Below are positions 128 to 41,290 of a stretch of 43,631 nucleotides of DNA, in pieces. Under the pieces are notes generated by a model. That model saw nothing but the letters and a program-made list of their open reading frames with translations. It was not told the DNA's origin and did not search any database. Source of the DNA: a virus (lineage: Duplodnaviria > Caudoviricetes); the IMG/VR virus record IMGVR_UViG_3300038393_001615, positions 1 through 43,631 of that record. The stretch is one strand, 5' to 3'. Each line of letters starts with the position of its first letter. Positions within the stretch are counted from its first letter, which is position 1. A program made the translations under genes and the position numbers.

Positions 128-386
128 ACGCGCGGCCTTCCCCGAAGGCAAAGATGTCGACGTCGAGCAGTACGTGGCAGGCCTCCTGCTTCGCACCATC
201 GTCGGGGAGGACAACAAGCCCCTGCTGATGGCCGAAGACCTGGACGTCCTGGCCAACCGTAACCCGGTGATCCTGCGCCGGCTGCAGTCCGAAGCGCTGG
301 CCTTGAATGGCCTGGGTCCGGCGAAGGCGAAGGAGCTTGAAAAAAACTCCGAAGCCACGCCGGCCGACGTAAGCACTTCGAGTTAG
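1..386 (+). CDS. Tail assembly chaperone (lambda gpG-like); true start ATG at 43504 across the circular junction, 128 aa
   Basis: Lies between tail tube and tape measure genes; MPLLNRNQLL...VEVPEWGGAVRL; slippery A AAA AAC near the 3' end. Confidence 0.85.
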   Translation, partial: PLLNRNQLLDVNDLPHKEVEVPEWGGAVRLITLGARDRVEWERAAFPEGKDVDVEQYVAGLLLRTIVGEDNKPLLMAEDLDVLANRNPVILRRLQSEALALNGLGPAKAKELEKNSEATPADVSTSS

Positions 387-5216: not shown

Positions 5217-5986
5217 GCCTCGAACCGCAGGTGCTGGCGGATTTCAAGGCGCATGCCGTCGCAGAGTATCCGCGCGAGTGCTGCGGTCTTGCCGTGGTGT
5301 TCAAGGGCCGGCAGATCTACGTGCCTTGCCGCAACCAAGCGGAGACGCCGGCGGAGCATTTTATCTTGCACCCGGAAGACTATGCAGCGGCCGAGGACCG
5401 CGGCGAGATCATCGCCGTGCTCCACTCGCATCCCAACGTGCCGGCGCGCGCCAGCGAAGGCGACCGGGTTTCCTGCGAGGGCTCTGGGCTGCCCTGGTAC
5501 ATCGTCAGCGTGATGCCGAGTGAGACCGAGGGCCAGCCGCCCGAGCCGCGCGAGGTGAACAGCATCGTGCCGGAAGGCTACGAGGCGCCGCTGGTCAACC
5601 GGCCGTTCGTGCACGGCATCCTCGACTGCTACTCGCTCTGCCGCGACTGGTACAAGCGCGAGCACGGCCTGGTGCTGCCGGACTTCGAGCGCCGCGATGC
5701 TTGGTGGAACGACGGCAGCTCCAGCCTCTACGAGCAGCACTTCGCCGAGGCCGGCTTCGAGGTGGTGACGCGCACGATCAAAGAGAACCTGGACGTGCTG
5801 CGGCCGGGCGACGGCATCCTCATGCAGATCGACGCCCGCAACCAGGTGCCCAACCACGCGGCGATCTACCTGGGCGACGGGCTCATGCTCCATCACCTCT
5901 ACAACAGGCTTTCTTCACGCGACGTTTACGGTGGCCCGTGGCTCGACTACACTCGCGCCATCGTCCGGCACCGGAACCTCAAGTGA
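5213..5986 (+). CDS. Tail assembly protein K (JAB/MPN metalloprotease + NlpC/P60)
   Basis: GTG overlapping the gpL stop; YPRECCGL and HSHPxxxxxxSxxD JAB motifs; DCYSL and HAAIYLGDGLMLHH NlpC/P60 motifs. Confidence 0.92.
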   Translation: MSLEPQVLADFKAHAVAEYPRECCGLAVVFKGRQIYVPCRNQAETPAEHFILHPEDYAAAEDRGEIIAVLHSHPNVPARASEGDRVSCEGSGLPWYIVSVMPSETEGQPPEPREVNSIVPEGYEAPLVNRPFVHGILDCYSLCRDWYKREHGLVLPDFERRDAWWNDGSSSLYEQHFAEAGFEVVTRTIKENLDVLRPGDGILMQIDARNQVPNHAAIYLGDGLMLHHLYNRLSSRDVYGGPWLDYTRAIVRHRNLK

Positions 5987-7062
5987 CTGCCCGTACCGTT
6001 CGGCTCTATGGCGAAATGGGTTCGCGCTTCGGGCGCGTGCACCGCTTCCACCTCGATTCCGACAGCCCTGCCGAAGCCGTCCAGGCGCTCATGTCGCAGG
6101 TGCCCGGCGTGCGCCAGTACCTGATGAGCGCCAAGAAACGGGGCGTCGGCTTCACGGTATTCGCCGGCCGCCAGAACCTGGCCGAGAATGAGCTGACGCT
6201 ACCGGCGGCCGCTAACGACGATGACATTCGCATCGCTCCGGTGCTGATGGGTTCCAAGAAAGGCGGCGTGCTGCAGGTGATCGTGGGCGTCGTGCTCGTG
6301 GCCGCCGCGGCGATCCTGTCGTTCACGCCCTACGCTGCCGCGTCGCCTTACTTGTACGCGGCCGGCATCTCGATGATCGCCGGCGGCGTCGTGCAGCTGC
6401 TCACGCCCCTGCCGAAGGGTCTGCACTCGAAAGACAGCGCCGGCAACATGCCGAGCTACAGCTTCAACGGGCCGGTCAACACGCAGGCCCAGGGCAATCC
6501 GGTGCCGCTGCTCTACGGCGGCCCGCTCAAGGTCGGCAGCGCGGTCATCAGCGCCGGCATCGACACGCTCGAAACCGTCTACGCCCAAGGCGGCCTGACC
6601 GTCGGCCATATGGGCGGTGGCGGCGGTTGCCCGGAGTTGAACATGCCGGTGCGCGTCGTGCGCAACGAGCGCGAGGTCGAGATCCCAGCGTGCGAGGTCC
6701 GCGCGGGCGACGTGCTGGTGACCGCCGATCCGGTGACGCTCGCGCCCGGCCGCGCGGTGGTGCGCTACAGCGAGCCGAAGCTGCAGCCCTGCGTGGGCGT
6801 GGTGCTGGCCGATCGCAGCCTGCATTGCTCGCGCAGCGCGCCGCTGCCGACGCCTACGGGCCTCTCTGACGCGCCGGACGTGGAAGGCTTGGCCGTGGCC
6901 GCCCTGCACGACGGTGAGGCGCGCTGGGACCGCGTGCTGGGCGTGTACGACCGCGGCATGCGCGAAGTCCAGCACATCGACATCGACAACGGCTGCTTCT
7001 GGGCCGGCGGCGTTCTGCACCACAACAAGCAAGCCAACATCACCGCACAGGACGGTCGCTAA
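5983..7062 (+). CDS. Tail assembly protein I (ubiquitin-like N-terminus) fused to a C-terminal Hint/intein-like domain
   Basis: GTG overlapping the gpK stop; VRLYG..FGR..SPAEAVQAL..IRIAPVLMGSKKGG, hydrophobic hairpin, SYSFNGPVNTQAQGNPVPLLYG..VGSAVISAGI; then GGGGG-C216...HHN348. Confidence 0.9.
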   Translation: MTARTVRLYGEMGSRFGRVHRFHLDSDSPAEAVQALMSQVPGVRQYLMSAKKRGVGFTVFAGRQNLAENELTLPAAANDDDIRIAPVLMGSKKGGVLQVIVGVVLVAAAAILSFTPYAAASPYLYAAGISMIAGGVVQLLTPLPKGLHSKDSAGNMPSYSFNGPVNTQAQGNPVPLLYGGPLKVGSAVISAGIDTLETVYAQGGLTVGHMGGGGGCPELNMPVRVVRNEREVEIPACEVRAGDVLVTADPVTLAPGRAVVRYSEPKLQPCVGVVLADRSLHCSRSAPLPTPTGLSDAPDVEGLAVAALHDGEARWDRVLGVYDRGMREVQHIDIDNGCFWAGGVLHHNKQANITAQDGR

Positions 7063-10000
7063 TGAACGCTGTGCTCAAAGGCGCGAAGGGTGGCGGCAGC
7101 CAGCCGCAAGGCTCGACCGAAGCGCCCGATACCCTCACCTCGACTGCGCGAGCGCGCATCCTCGACCTGGTGAGCGAGGGGCCGATCCTCGGCTTCCGCA
7201 ACGGCGGCACGAACCCGCTGCAGGACGTCTATCTCAACGAGACGCCGGTCGCCAACCCGGACGGGTCGCTCAACTTTTCGGACGTCTACATCGACTCGCG
7301 CTCCGGCACGAACACCCAGGATTACATGCCTGGCTTCCCGGCGGTCGAGAACGAGTTTGGCGTGGGCACCGAGTTGAAGTCGACGGCCCCGTGGGCGCAG
7401 GCGATCAACAACCTCGACCTCACCGCCGTGCGCATCCGCCTGTCGGTGCCGTCGCTGCAGCAGAGCAACGCGTCGACCGGCGACATCACCGGCTACCGGA
7501 TCGCGTACACCATCGAGCTGTCGACCGACGGCGGCGCGTTCGTGCAGGTAGTCAGCTCGGCGTTCTCGGGCAAGACCTCTAGCAAGTACGAGCGCACGCA
7601 CCGCATCCCGCTGCCGGCCGCCACGACCGGCTGGACGGTGCGCGTGACGCGCCTCACCGCGAACAAGAACCTCGCCACCGTGGCCGACACGACGACGGTC
7701 GAGAGCTATACCGAGATCATCGACGCCAAGCTGCGCTATCCCAACAGCGCGCTCGTCGGCATCATCATCGACGCCCAGCAGTTCTCGAATATCCCCACGC
7801 GTGCCTACGACCTCTACGGCCGCATCGTCAGCGTGCCGAGCAACTACGATCCGACCACGCGTGCGTACACCGGCGTCTGGGATGGCTCGTTCAAGCCCGC
7901 GTGGACGAACAACCCGGCGTGGATCTTCTACGACCTGGCCACGCATCCGCGCTACGGCCTCGGCCGCTACGTCACCGCGGCGCTGATGAACAAGTGGGTG
8001 CTCTACTCGATCGCCCAGTATTGCGACCAGCTCGTGCCGGACGGCCGCGGCGGTCAGGAGCCGCGCTTCACCTGCAGCCTCTACATGCAAACGCAGGCCG
8101 ACGCGTACAAGGTGCTCAACGATCTCGCCTCGGTGTTCCGCGGCCAGATGTACTGGGCCGGCGGCGCGATTCAGGCGGTCGCGGACATGCCTGGCGACCC
8201 GGACTACGACTACTCGCCGGCGAACGTCATCAACGGCGAGTTCCAGTACGCCGGCAGCGGCCGCAAGACCCGCTACACCGTCGCGCAGGTGAGCTGGAAC
8301 GACCCGGACGACTTTGGCCGCGCCAAGGTCGAGACGGTCATCGACCGCGACGGCTTGAAGCGCTACGGCTTCCAACCGACGCCGATCATCGCGGTCGGCT
8401 GCACCTCGAAGGGCCAGGCCCAGCGCCTCGGCCTCTGGGTGCTCTACACCGCGCGCCTGGAGACCGAGACGGTCGTGTTCAAAGTCGGCGCCGACGGCAT
8501 CGTGGCCAACCCCGGCCGCATCGTCCGCGTGTTCGATCCGGCGCGCGCCGGCAAGCGCCAGGCGGGCCGCATCCACTCGGCAACGACGACTTCGGTCGTG
8601 GTCGACCAGATGCCCGACCTCGTGGCGATCGGCGACACGATCTCGTGCACCACGTCAGACGCGGTTACCGAGACGCGCACCATCAGCGCGATCGACGGCC
8701 CGAGCAAGACCATCACCGTCAGCAGCGCGTTCTCCGAGGTGCCGGCGGCCGAGACGATGTGGGGCGTGGAGAGCATGTCGCTTGTCGCGGCAACCTACCG
8801 CGTGTTGAGCGTGGCCGAGCCTGCGTCGACCGACGAGGCGCTGGAGTACACGATCACCGCGCTGCGCCACAACGCAAGCAAGTTCGACGCCGTGGACATC
8901 GGCGCCGCGATCGAAGACCCGCCGATCACCACCATCCCGCCGCCCTCGCAGCAGGGGCCGGCGCAGGTAGTGCTGTCCGCCGCGCCGGTCAAAGGCGCCG
9001 TGCTGGTCTCGATCCAGCTCAACATTCAGTGGCTCCCCGCGCTGGGCGCGGTGAAGTACCGCGTCGAGTGGCGCCGCGACAACGGCAGCTGGAATGAGCT
9101 GGCCCCGCAAACCGGCCTGTCGGTGGATCTGCCCAACGCCGACCCAGGCTCCTACGAGGCCCGAGTGTTCGCGATCGGCGCCGGCGGCAACAGCTCGCTC
9201 CCGGTGTACGCCGACGCCCTCGCGGTCGACGACCCGACGACGCTGCCAACGACGGTCGAGGCGATCCAGACCCAGGCCAACGAGGCGGCAACCGACTCGT
9301 CGAACGCGCTCGCGCAGCTGGCCTACATCGCCAGCGACAACACGCTCGCGCAGGGCGAGAAGTCGCTGGTGCTGCGTGACTACTCGGTCATTACCACTGA
9401 GCAGGCGGGCATCGACGCCGAGGCCGCGCGCTACAACATCACCACCGAGAAGACCGCCTACGACAACGCGATCTCGGCGTGGTCAGCGTACCTCGGCACG
9501 CTGACCACGCCGACGCTGTGGAGCGACATCAGCGGGGATACCGACATCGTGGGCGCGACGTGGCGCGCGAAGTGGACGGCCGTCTATACGGCTCGACAGA
9601 CGCTGCTCAACAAGATCCTCGCTTCGGCCAAGGCCAACGGCGACTACGCGGTGAACCTGGGGCTTAGCGCACCCGTGGTCAACCCCACTTTCCGCAACGG
9701 GCTCGACAGCTGGACGTTCGACACGGCCGGCGCTGGCGAGTGGGCGACGGGTTCCGGCGGCAACACCCCGGACTCGGCGCAGACGACGTTCCTGCAGCAC
9801 ACGGGCGTTGCCGGGCAGGTGACGACGTGCGCGCACAACACGGGTGGCGGCATCCCGGTCAAGGTCGGGCAGACGGTCACCGCGATGGTGGCGCTGCGCG
9901 CGGTCAACCCCAACGCCACGGCACGAGCCTACGTTCGCATCGGTTGGCGCAATAGCGCCGGCGCGCTGTTCAGTAACTCGACGCAAGGCGTGACGATCTG

Positions 10001-11561
10001 CACGACGACTGCCGGGTCCAACTACTTCGTCCAGGGCGTCAGCCGCGTCTACGGCACGGCGCCTGCGGGGGCGGTCAGCGCCTGCGTGGAGATCGAGTTC
10101 GACAGTCACACTTCTGGCTTCTATACCGCCACGTCCGCCTGGATCGCCGCCGGCCACGCCAGCGCCGACGAGATCCCCGAGTCGGACGTGCGCAAGTGGG
10201 CGGCGGAGAGCGGCGCAGACGTGACCGCCGGCAAGAGCCTCGACGTCCTCGTGGACGGCACCTACGTGCGCCAAATGATGCCTACGGGCACGGGCTACGC
10301 GTGGCCGATCGACAACGCTACGATGGCGGCGCAGGCAGCCTGGGGGGATGGGGGCAACGGGCATGCGTACTACCAAGGCGCTGGCCCCGCGCCGGCTGTC
10401 GGCAGCCAGTACCTGGTGCTGCAGGCGACGGCCGCCGGCGGGTATATCCAGTACTACCGAATGTTCCCCGTTGTTCCAGGCGACAACATTTCGGCCACGG
10501 CGCTCATTTATGCGGCGTCGGGGATCAACTGCTATCTAGCCGTCAATTTTCTCAACGCTGCGGGCAGCTATATCGGTCGCTTTACGACCCAAGGTTCCAC
10601 ATCGGTAGCGTGGCTTACCCGCCAGGGCAGCGGCGTGGTTCCCGTAGGAGCAGTAAAGGCGTACCTCACGCTGGGCATGGACGCGGCGGGTTACGCGGCG
10701 CTCAACTTTCTATCGGTAGCGACGAACGATGTTCGGGTCGCTGGCAGCGGCGCGCGCCTCGGTGATCTGCGCAACCAGGTGATGGTCGGCGTGGGCAACT
10801 ACGCCTCGGGCTGGACCGGCGGCGGCATCACGTACAGCGCGACCACGACCAGCGCGACCATCAGCGTTGCCGCCGGCACGCTGCAGATCGGCAGCGCCTC
10901 GCTGACCTACAACGCGTCCAGCACGACGGTTAGCGGCTCGGCCGGCGCGACCCGCACCTACTACCTCTACTACGACGACGGCGGGTTCACCGGCGGCGCC
11001 AAGACCCTCAACGCCACGACCAGCACGATCACCGCGCTGGCGGCAGACGGCCGCGTGTTGATCGGCAGCGTGACCTTCACCTTCCCGACCAGCGGCACGG
11101 GCTCTGGCGGCGGCGGCACGAGCTGCCCCAGTGTGGATGCGTGGGTGATCCGCCGGGTCGAGGACTCGGAGGGCGACTACGAGCACGTCCGCGCTGGCGA
11201 GATCGAAGTCGACGACTACCTGCTGCTCACCAGCGGCGCCTGGGGCCGGGTGACCTACTCCAACCGCGTGCTGCAGCCGGGCGTTCGCGTGTACGATCGC
11301 GACGGCCACACGCTGACGTGCTCGCGCAGCGCTCCGCTGGAGCTGGCTGGCGGCGCTGGCATCACGGCCGCGCATGCCAAGGGTCATTCGGTTCGAGTCC
11401 GCCACGCCGGCGCTACGCGGCTGGCGCAGATCGCCCAGACAGAGGACGTCGGTGCACTATGGGTCCAGCACATCACCTGCGAGAACGACTACTTCTGGAC
11501 GGGCGACTTCCCGACGTTCCTGTTCGCGCATCACAATCTCAAGCCGATCGGCAACAACTGA
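7062..11561 (+). CDS. Central tail fibre / tip attachment protein J with C-terminal carbohydrate-binding-like modules and a terminal Hint domain
   Basis: GAKGGG..PDTL, LVSEGPI, KLRYPNSA, WDGSFKPAWTNNPAWIFYDL, QYCDQLVPDGRGGQEPRF, FN3-like segment; GSGGGGTS-C1355...HHN1492. Confidence 0.95.
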   Translation: MNAVLKGAKGGGSQPQGSTEAPDTLTSTARARILDLVSEGPILGFRNGGTNPLQDVYLNETPVANPDGSLNFSDVYIDSRSGTNTQDYMPGFPAVENEFGVGTELKSTAPWAQAINNLDLTAVRIRLSVPSLQQSNASTGDITGYRIAYTIELSTDGGAFVQVVSSAFSGKTSSKYERTHRIPLPAATTGWTVRVTRLTANKNLATVADTTTVESYTEIIDAKLRYPNSALVGIIIDAQQFSNIPTRAYDLYGRIVSVPSNYDPTTRAYTGVWDGSFKPAWTNNPAWIFYDLATHPRYGLGRYVTAALMNKWVLYSIAQYCDQLVPDGRGGQEPRFTCSLYMQTQADAYKVLNDLASVFRGQMYWAGGAIQAVADMPGDPDYDYSPANVINGEFQYAGSGRKTRYTVAQVSWNDPDDFGRAKVETVIDRDGLKRYGFQPTPIIAVGCTSKGQAQRLGLWVLYTARLETETVVFKVGADGIVANPGRIVRVFDPARAGKRQAGRIHSATTTSVVVDQMPDLVAIGDTISCTTSDAVTETRTISAIDGPSKTITVSSAFSEVPAAETMWGVESMSLVAATYRVLSVAEPASTDEALEYTITALRHNASKFDAVDIGAAIEDPPITTIPPPSQQGPAQVVLSAAPVKGAVLVSIQLNIQWLPALGAVKYRVEWRRDNGSWNELAPQTGLSVDLPNADPGSYEARVFAIGAGGNSSLPVYADALAVDDPTTLPTTVEAIQTQANEAATDSSNALAQLAYIASDNTLAQGEKSLVLRDYSVITTEQAGIDAEAARYNITTEKTAYDNAISAWSAYLGTLTTPTLWSDISGDTDIVGATWRAKWTAVYTARQTLLNKILASAKANGDYAVNLGLSAPVVNPTFRNGLDSWTFDTAGAGEWATGSGGNTPDSAQTTFLQHTGVAGQVTTCAHNTGGGIPVKVGQTVTAMVALRAVNPNATARAYVRIGWRNSAGALFSNSTQGVTICTTTAGSNYFVQGVSRVYGTAPAGAVSACVEIEFDSHTSGFYTATSAWIAAGHASADEIPESDVRKWAAESGADVTAGKSLDVLVDGTYVRQMMPTGTGYAWPIDNATMAAQAAWGDGGNGHAYYQGAGPAPAVGSQYLVLQATAAGGYIQYYRMFPVVPGDNISATALIYAASGINCYLAVNFLNAAGSYIGRFTTQGSTSVAWLTRQGSGVVPVGAVKAYLTLGMDAAGYAALNFLSVATNDVRVAGSGARLGDLRNQVMVGVGNYASGWTGGGITYSATTTSATISVAAGTLQIGSASLTYNASSTTVSGSAGATRTYYLYYDDGGFTGGAKTLNATTSTITALAADGRVLIGSVTFTFPTSGTGSGGGGTSCPSVDAWVIRRVEDSEGDYEHVRAGEIEVDDYLLLTSGAWGRVTYSNRVLQPGVRVYDRDGHTLTCSRSAPLELAGGAGITAAHAKGHSVRVRHAGATRLAQIAQTEDVGALWVQHITCENDYFWTGDFPTFLFAHHNLKPIGNN

Positions 11562-40556: not shown

Positions 40557-40757
40557 GTGAAGCATCTGGTGCTCAAACCCTTCCACCTCGACGAGGCCGG
40601 GCGCATCGTCCAGCGCGGCGAGATCGTGACCTTGGACGACCAGGTTCGCAGCATGGATCTCTGCCGCCAGCCGGACGCGTTGCTCATGGTGCTGCCCGGC
40701 GAAAGCCGCTCGGCGCCCCAGAACCGGAACGCTGCTCCGCAGCGCCGCACGAAATGA
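40557..40757 (+). CDS. Small hypothetical protein after the capsid gene
   Basis: GGAG RBS, GTG start; stop coupled to the next gene. Confidence 0.65.
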   Translation: MKHLVLKPFHLDEAGRIVQRGEIVTLDDQVRSMDLCRQPDALLMVLPGESRSAPQNRNAAPQRRTK

Positions 40758-41290
40758 TCTATCACCTGACCGCGTGGAAGACCGGCGACATCGGCGGCGG
40801 ACTCAACGCGGCCATCGAGCCCTTGCCGGATGACGCGTGGATCTGCGCGCGCGACGGCGACACCCTGTTTCTTACCCCGACGTGGGGCAAGTTGGTCGAG
40901 CAGATCGTCGAGCAGAACGGCGACGACTACGCGGTGATCGGTTGCATGACCAATCGCCTGCGCGCTCCCTACCAGCTCCACGGCGGCAAGTTGAGCGAGG
41001 AAGCCGACATCGGCGTCCACGTCCAGATCGCCCAGCAGCGCCAGCAGACCTACGGCGCCTCCGTGCAGGCCGTCAGCGGCCCGGTCGCGGGGCTCTGCCT
41101 GATCTTCCGCAAGGCGACGTGGGCGCGGCATCCGTTCGTGACGCGCTCGATCTACTTCGACCAGTTTTTCTGTGACGCCGCGCGGAGCAACCACGGCCGC
41201 GTCGGCGTGGCCCTCGGGCTCTACCTGTTCCATCTCTACCGTTGGGGCAAACCCAACCCTGTCGGCTACGTGGGGCACCTCTCGCCATGA
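40754..41290 (+). CDS. Putative glycosyltransferase (GT-A / family 2-like)
   Basis: GGGLNAAI..DAWICARDGDTLFL (DxD after a beta strand), AVIG, VAGLCLIFRKATW, YFDQFFC, LYLFH. Confidence 0.65.
   Translation: MIYHLTAWKTGDIGGGLNAAIEPLPDDAWICARDGDTLFLTPTWGKLVEQIVEQNGDDYAVIGCMTNRLRAPYQLHGGKLSEEADIGVHVQIAQQRQQTYGASVQAVSGPVAGLCLIFRKATWARHPFVTRSIYFDQFFCDAARSNHGRVGVALGLYLFHLYRWGKPNPVGYVGHLSP

Follow-up and report, generated by a model that had tools for sequence, protein, structure and literature searches.

A Hint domain without the block B histidine as an optional C-terminal cassette of the phage tail-tip protein gpI, and its possible self-excision through a conserved lysine

What is a Hint domain doing at the end of a phage tail plug? 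In the window analysed here (the whole stretch of 43,631 nucleotides of IMG/VR record IMGVR_UViG_3300038393_001615), the tail-tip protein gpI begins with a ubiquitin-like domain (Ubl) and ends with an intein-like segment that runs from Cys to Asn and is followed by lysine. An earlier note on this DNA had suggested that gpI could be cut twice, by the gpK JAB domain after the Ubl and by the Hint domain, leaving an activated poly-Gly C-terminus reminiscent of ubiquitin conjugation. Here we ask whether the Hint domain leaves gpI, what becomes of the ends, and whether it has any dealings with the Ubl.

The gpI gene and its neighbours in the tail tip

The window, 43.6 kb of GC-rich siphophage DNA, codes for terminase, portal, maturation protease, major head protein, and its own DNA polymerase and primase, with a lambda-type tip cluster in the order H-M-L-K-I-J by Pfam and PHROG matches; a glycosyltransferase gene (40754-41290; phrog_14179, E 2e-58) lies between the capsid and head-closure genes. 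The runs containing the sequence are soil and rhizosphere metagenomes, with no RNA runs among those listed. Contigs of three further runs have 0 differences from the Hint gene region (Table 1), so the Hint-bearing sequence is not an assembly artefact; none of the contig joints listed removes the Hint precisely, and contigs can show presence only. Among the Hint-less gpI relatives the top scorer comes from Dyella (64% identity), and genome loci carrying the domain belong to Rhodanobacteraceae, Lysobacteraceae, and Betaproteobacteria; the phage host is therefore likely of such a kind.

gpI (5983-7062) is 359 aa long, and the layout proposed in the earlier note (Ubl, hydrophobic hairpin, core, five Gly, Hint, and a tail starting with Lys) holds at every coordinate, including the Cys216 codon at 6628 after the five Gly (G211-G215, 6613-6627) and the HHN (346-348) ending at 7026. 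The tail, KQANITAQDGR (7027-7059), is followed by a TAA stop codon (7060-7062) that overlaps the gpJ ATG. In the full-length structure model the hairpin helices span residues 91-112 and 118-139, and the plug core matches both phrog_32 tail assembly protein (E 2e-62) and lambda gpI (8iyk_I, E 1.5e-17). Cryo-EM of the lambda virion resolved only gpI residues 134/135-222/223, with a hydrophobic N-terminal stretch, as a luminal tripod joined to gpJ by beta-augmentation, and no gpK was detected in the virion (PMC10721106; PMC12617516); the resolved part, in the tip lumen, reaches the C-terminus (PMC10721106).

Table 1. Features of the window around gpI and contig cover of the Hint gene region
Feature	Residues	Window position	Strand	Remarks
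gpK, JAB metalloprotease fused to NlpC/P60		5213..5986	+	
gpI Ubl (MoaD/SAMP-type beta-grasp)	1-91	5983..6255	+	VIA structure match
gpI hydrophobic helical hairpin	92-139	6256..6399	+	
gpI plug core	140-197	6400..6573	+	
gpI Gly-rich linker		6574..6627	+	ends in five Gly; insertion site of cassette
gpI Hint domain, 133 aa	C216-N348	6628..7026	+	predicted from fold model
gpI C-terminal tail, 11 aa, then stop	from Lys349	7027..7062	+	
gpJ central tail fibre, 1499 aa		7062..11561	+	FNIII-A_GpJ, Phage-tail_3; phrog_31 E 8e-272
gpJ Hint, second and paralogous	C1355-N1492	11124..11558	+	CSRSAP, HHN
Contig cover, X2		5900-8286		
Contig cover, X3		5900-8286		
Contig cover, X4		6310-7317		

The pair resembles the lambda gpK-gpI checkpoint in gene order, in a JAB+NlpC gpK, and in the Ubl-hairpin-core arrangement of gpI; lambda gpI (223 aa), unlike that of the window, has no Hint. 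The beta-grasp N-terminus of gpI has a conserved C-terminal Gly, and the adjacent gpK (Prok-JAB, E 6e-16; NLPC_P60, E 1e-13; both Pfam) has an intact JAB motif (E18, H71-S-H73, S81, D84) and intact NlpC/P60 residues (C139, H215, H227). Because release of the gpI Ubl by the gpK JAB was predicted in 2006 (Iyer et al., PMC1779556) and cleavage of the lambda gpI Ubl by gpK, after gpI has come together with other proteins of the tip, is reported in a 2025 conference summary (PMC12908700, where no position is given for the cut), this cut is known biology and not new. By analogy with lambda we would confidently expect it in the window phage, and the suggestion of a JAB cut after the Ubl is to that extent supported.

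The end of the Ubl, placed earlier at the GG of MGSKKGG (G94-G95), has to be moved. VIA matches the Ubl to SAMP1 (4hro, Z 10.1) and MoaD (1fm0, Z 8.4), and the C-terminal residues of MoaD (1fm0, 2q5w), Urm1-like 1xo3, and CysO align to gpI residue 91, so that the diglycine equivalent is G90-S91; G94-G95 is ruled out, the structural alignment ending at residue 91. The later GG is part of a conserved G-[SA]-K-x-G-G junction, found in lambda as well, with its K in 114/117 and its last G in 112/117. The gpJ N-terminus (window 7062-7100) contains G-A-K-G-G-G, which fits the same motif; it may descend from an ancestor fused to a Ubl, serve gpK as a second site, or be fortuitous.

A family of Hint domains without the block B histidine

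Hint models of Pfam, NCBIfam, and PHROG match neither of the two window domains (Pfam: none at E<=1), and a single-sequence PDB search gave only E>=0.13. An AlphaFold2 model built on a 74-row alignment (pLDDT 92.8) has inteins and BILs as its top Foldseek matches (E 8e-8, TM 0.78), with Npu DnaB and the second-ranked Tetrahymena BIL2 both at E 8e-8; in VIA, the full-length model gives a best intein match of Z 18.9 (rmsd 1.8 A, 134 residues), and gpI 216..348 covers several inteins from residue 1 through the last residue. As modelled, then, the C-terminal domain of gpI has the Hint fold and belongs to the HINT superfamily. Its 133 aa leave no space for an endonuclease, and with Lys at +1 the earlier description of a BIL-like, endonuclease-free domain that is not a canonical intein is borne out.

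Aligned to the gp41-1 intein (E 3e-5), a profile built from 49 domains of the family puts CSxxAP on CSEEHL and a His on the F4 Asp, with no His at F13 and an extra His two residues ahead of the terminal Asn (block names as in PMC4031507). In gpI, block B reads C282-S283-x-x-A286-P287, in which Ala (6838) takes the place of the His B10 of inteins; His331 occupies F4, normally Asp, and the domain ends in His346-His347-Asn348. Measured against class 1 inteins, gpI thus has the Cys at position 1 and the terminal His-Asn (C216, H347-N348), with K349 in place of Cys/Ser/Thr at +1 and, in the gp41-1 profile register, S283-x-x-A286 in place of Thr-x-x-His. A 2014 review lists just two inteins that lack the block B His, and one of the two is a pseudogene (PMC4031507). 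Rescue of the lost His by Gly(-1) is ruled out, as the opposite is described for the Ssp DnaB/M86 intein, where His-to-Ala with Gly(-1) blocks thioester formation and the N-S shift (PMC6333167).

The second Hint, on gpJ, also lacks the block B His and has a 7-aa tail with Lys at +2. It is 34% identical to the gpI Hint (E 6e-17), and the two fall in different clades of the Hint tree, which rules out a recent duplication between them.

Relatives were collected from 1.84 billion representatives (297 matches at E<=0.001, 150 of them listed); the listed 150, four further sequences, and the two window copies, after removal of a self match (P0002) and a spurious match (P0143), make 159 domains in 154 proteins. 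Among the matches listed, Cys1 is present in 151/152 domains, the Cys282 equivalent in 157/159, Ser/Thr at B7 in 159/159, Ala at B10 in 157/159, His at F4 in 130/158, His346 in 154/157, and His347 and Asn348 in 153/157, with Gly(-1) in 88/151; the conservation of Cys216 and Asn348 that the earlier note had asked of homologues is therefore seen, and the lysine is kept too. Over the 153 domains with a terminal Asn, again among the matches listed, Lys stands at +1 or +2 in 137 (28 at +1 only, 104 at +2 only, five at both), compared with 21 of 957 positions (2.2%) from +3 to +10; 16 have no Lys at +1/+2, and only seven have Cys/Ser/Thr at +1. Tails of 10 residues or fewer are found in 70 of these 153, C-flanks of more than 20 in 62, and of more than 100 in 14. 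In the Hint tree the Lys swaps between +1 and +2 about 10 times, yet is kept, which fits a long flexible nucleophile.

None of the 74 members scanned matches PT-HINT (PF07591) in Pfam, and one has a weak Hom_end_hint match (E 4e-4); ESM Atlas neighbours at 0.90-0.93 carry PT-HINT/Intein_splicing, a lead only. A degenerate motif scan found the family domain in 22/23 viral and 16/27 genome loci, and nine cultured phage records, mostly of Xanthomonas phages, have a member, as do prophages of the soil bacteria Dyella marensis (L027), Rhodanobacter glycinis (L051), and Frateuria terrea (L048). Most of the 116 carrier proteins scanned have no Pfam family; those assigned are tail-tip, PKD/repeat, DUF4815, Gly-zipper, and RHS proteins. 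Values of dN/dS between 0.06 and 0.33 in all 10 pairs of relatives, none of which includes the window's own copy, rule out a decaying remnant.

Several members depart from the common form. Tandem Hints with Lys-containing spacers of 4-7 residues occur in five proteins (P0019, P0021, P0053, P0105, P0114), and in P0114 block B is a canonical TxxH in the first Hint, the second being His-less. Large-phage members (L004, L006, L008, L012, L021; P0016, P0017) have a short Cys-rich peptide after HHN-x-K and are usually the second of two adjacent Hint genes. In P0129 the Hint is N-terminal to DUF6531 and RHS repeats, with ~1000 residues after it, and a Burkholderiales MAG (L045 2-3826, minus strand) has the same junction sequences. 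An outlying branch (L055 6001-6447, L056 5001-5426, and L062 8358-8783, from phages DLP6 and LucasX and an IMG/VR contig) has Thr at B10, lacks the F4 His, has its Lys no earlier than +3, and is possibly further degenerated or cleavage-only. In Duganella aceris (L031 6513-7234) the domain is split across two frames, by a broken copy or a sequencing error.

Occupied and empty alleles

gpI was compared over the best 120 of its 1518 relatives, a score ranking that enriches Hint-bearing ones at the top; 16 of these, the window's included, carry a Hint and 104 do not. A Gly run followed by a short tail is present in 71/104 Hint-less proteins (75/104 by a looser pattern), so the run belongs to the host protein, and poly-Gly as a Hint-specific ubiquitin mimic is ruled out by its presence in empty alleles. 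The lysine behaves otherwise: all 16 Hint-bearing gpI proteins have Cys1, CSxxAP, HHN, and Lys at +1 (13) or +2 (three), against a Lys in the two residues after the Gly run in 1/71 Hint-less proteins, and the Lys thus belongs to the cassette. With the Hint subtracted, the length from core to end is 37 in the window and has a median of 36.5 (n=16), compared with a median of 37 in 103 empty alleles.

In a core-only gpI tree, a quick tree with many open forks, the Hint label changes 12 times, at least four of them forced by branches of support >=95 (mean of 15.3 with labels shuffled), and close pairs differ in the Hint, for example P0161 compared with P0202/P0247 (support 100). The Hint is repeatedly gained or lost at the gpI Gly run, and its removal restores ordinary gpI length. 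In some parts of the Hint tree (132 columns, weak resolution), copies from gpI, hub, and fibre genes are mingled. The N-terminal part of gpI, used as query in a locus search, found nothing in viral contigs.

At the fibre end the picture is different. All 12 loci found with the fibre-end domain have a Hint behind it, three of them near copies and one a divergent member without the +2 Lys; set against the mixed gpI, the Hint is thus a constant element of this fibre end, whereas gpI carries it optionally, as a mobile passenger. Two of the 12 (L058, L059) have a Hint-less gpI beside a Hint-bearing gpJ, and Hints are found on two adjacent tip genes in the window and in nine other loci (L001, L004, L006, L008, L012, L013, L025, L040, L051). 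A variant tip of two adjacent genes each ending in a Hint is seen in L001 (5520-10735), L027, L013, L025, L040, and L051; in L001 the upstream gene seems to encode a fusion of gpI and hub, and its downstream neighbour the fibre.

Possible fates of the Hint domain

The reading that we place first, tentatively and somewhat short of calling it probable, is that the gpI Hint excises itself in cis with Lys349 capturing the N-terminal part, because the Lys is tied to the cassette and sits at the place of the +1 nucleophile, and because excision restores the empty-allele length. As an optional cassette, residues 216-348 interrupt the Gly-rich C-terminal linker of what is otherwise an ordinary lambda-type tail plug. 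Cys216 would form a thioester with Gly215, aided by Ser283 (B7), with His331 (F4) and His346 standing in for the missing B10 His; an amine of Lys349 would then take the N-terminal part, be it the epsilon-amine, with an isopeptide as product (as in Tetrahymena BIL2), or the alpha-amine that the third step sets free, as proposed for type A BILs; and His347/Asn348 would cyclise to release the domain. The product would be a gpI of normal length with its 11-residue tail rejoined via Lys349, and the gpJ copy would act alike at the fibre end. Separately, gpK would sever the Ubl near G90-S91 while the tip assembles, in line with the report on lambda; the cut and the excision would be independent, the Hint not activating the Ubl.

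Both forms of capture have parallels, as BIL2 forms a Lys isopeptide (PMC8616854) and type A BILs splice or ligate by aminolysis (PMC4031507). The exact C1-to-Asn boundaries of the Hint fold count for excision, and, as lambda gpI lies in the tip lumen and is resolved to its C-terminus, a retained 14-kDa domain per subunit would look awkward. The strongest objection is the pairing of Ala at B10 with Gly(-1), the combination that is dead in Ssp DnaB/M86; the family would need the F4 and G-block His to compensate, a role that we infer for His331 and His346 from the sequence register. The 16 of 153 listed domains without Lys at +1/+2 and the outlying branch without the F4 His also count against it. 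Any clean insertion, with or without splicing, would also give the length match; the gpI tail overlaps the gpJ start signals and could be kept for non-protein reasons; and the tails of the fibre copies are 3-10 residues long, so ligation gains little there.

The main rival, which we consider possible but unlikely, is cleavage without ligation: the Hint would be a removable cap, thioester hydrolysis and/or Asn348 cyclisation would leave gpI ending in free Gly, and Lys349 would assist catalysis (oxyanion or base). Cleavage products outweigh splicing in type A BILs (PMC4031507), a point against ligation, and in the His-less Tko CDC21-1 intein a Lys replaces the function of the B10 His (PMC7765530); the many short tails among the matches listed and the constant Hint of the fibre-end loci, as expected of a fixed maturation cap, point the same way. 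However, in P0114 the first Hint, which is His-bearing, has a Lys at +2 too, and Lys is therefore not simply a His substitute (n=1); the C-flanks of more than 20, and even more than 100, residues and the agreement of gpI tails with the tail length of empty alleles also count against this reading.

It is more doubtful that the N-junction is silent, the domain being retained (in a structural, adhesive, or metal-binding role through Cys/His) or only the tail being shed by Asn cyclisation. The dead Ssp DnaB/M86 combination (PMC6333167) would fit, the F4 Asp and F13 His are missing too, and the conserved C216, C282, H331, H346, and H347 could be metal ligands; but Cys1 and the B7 Ser/Thr are kept among the matches listed as if the N-S shift were selected, and the near-obligate Lys beside the junction is left unexplained.

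Ligation in trans, in which the thioester at the Gly end of gpI is captured by an amine on some other protein of the tip (such as gpJ at its N-terminus, or an adjacent subunit), stitching the tip covalently, seems to us improbable. gpI and gpJ form one chain in other phages (PMC1779556; phrog_31 covers both), Hints often lie on two adjacent tip genes, and BIL2 can conjugate to other substrates (PMC8616854); however, a conserved cis Lys by the junction would probably outcompete a trans nucleophile, Hint-less gpI occurs beside Hint-bearing gpJ, most gpI relatives are Hint-less, and the cassette passes between gpI, hub, and fibre genes and sits on unrelated carriers (PKD, DUF4815, RHS). We give equally little credence to the wider proposal that a phage family of ~300 clusters ligates via a rewired Hint (no block B His, an F4 His, a Lys amine), the gpI copy stitching the plug covalently to gpJ or a neighbouring subunit in trans, as an ATP-free conjugation of the ubiquitin-like kind that would accompany the JAB cut in virion assembly. 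Ubiquitin-like conjugation in trans by gpI is unlikely and the activated poly-Gly end envisaged earlier a weak proposal, as the Gly run is a linker of the host protein at the end of the plug core, 125 residues past the Ubl, where the Hint could not activate the Ubl, and as the block B His is missing, a loss that together with Gly(-1) blocks the thioester in Ssp DnaB/M86 (PMC6333167); after the JAB cut the Ubl would end in an ordinary carboxylate, with the Hint a further 125 residues downstream, and the conserved cis Lys favours intramolecular capture over transfer to another protein.

Among known systems, the best structural matches to the gpI Hint are class 1 mini-inteins (Npu DnaB, gp41-1) and Tko CDC21-1 (Z 18.9 and 18.2). 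Like class 1 inteins it has occupied and empty alleles at one site; unlike them it has no +1 nucleophile and lies in a variable linker, not in a conserved enzyme motif, and Tko CDC21-1 has a bulky Leu(-1) where the family mostly has Gly(-1). With type A BIL/PT-HINT domains (C. thermocellum BIL, PDB 2lwy, Z 15.8) it shares the Hint fold, Cys1, a terminal His-Asn with no +1 Cys/Ser/Thr, no endonuclease, and a variable host region, as type A BILs are defined in PMC4031507 and PMC7765530; it differs in Ala for His B10, the F4 His, the extra His before His-Asn, the near-obligate Lys at +1/+2, the occurrence mainly on phage tail-tip proteins, and the lack of membership in PF07591 or another Hint Pfam family. 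Tetrahymena BUBL1 BIL2 (PDB 6y75/6tmm, Z 16.9) is the precedent for Lys-isopeptide splicing and also has a Ubl within the same polypeptide, but its Ubls flank the domain directly and it has a catalytic H69, whereas the gpI Hint is His-less with Lys at +1, its N-flank is the plug core, and the Ubl lies 125 residues upstream (ending at 91, the Hint starting at 216). The gpI Hint would work like a type A BIL or BIL2, yet it falls outside inteins, PT-HINT, and BUBL domains in sequence and block B.

In the literature searched, which is largely open access, we found no description of Hint domains at phage tail-protein C-termini; the sources cited concern terminase and reductase inteins or homing endonucleases (PMC3556154, PMC5259590), BIL types (PMC5874633, PMC7765530), and, in a Bil-system preprint, the conjugation of a host Ubl to the central fibre, which is a different process (10.1101/2023.09.04.556158). 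What is new from the gpI locus is the His-less subfamily and the comparison of occupied and empty alleles.

At least 157 natural Hints lack the block B His, mostly with Gly(-1), a dead context in an engineered intein, and yet are under purifying selection. If the Hint merely cleaves or stays silent, the significance is modest. If they are reactive, the His-less Hints achieve the N-S shift by a new catalytic route and may be natural examples of Lys-directed splicing, of use in isopeptide or branched-protein ligation tools. Excision rejoined through Lys would, if true, be an unusual form of protein splicing and add a self-processing step to phage tail-tip maturation, and the occupied and empty gpI alleles are a clean comparison for examining such processing.
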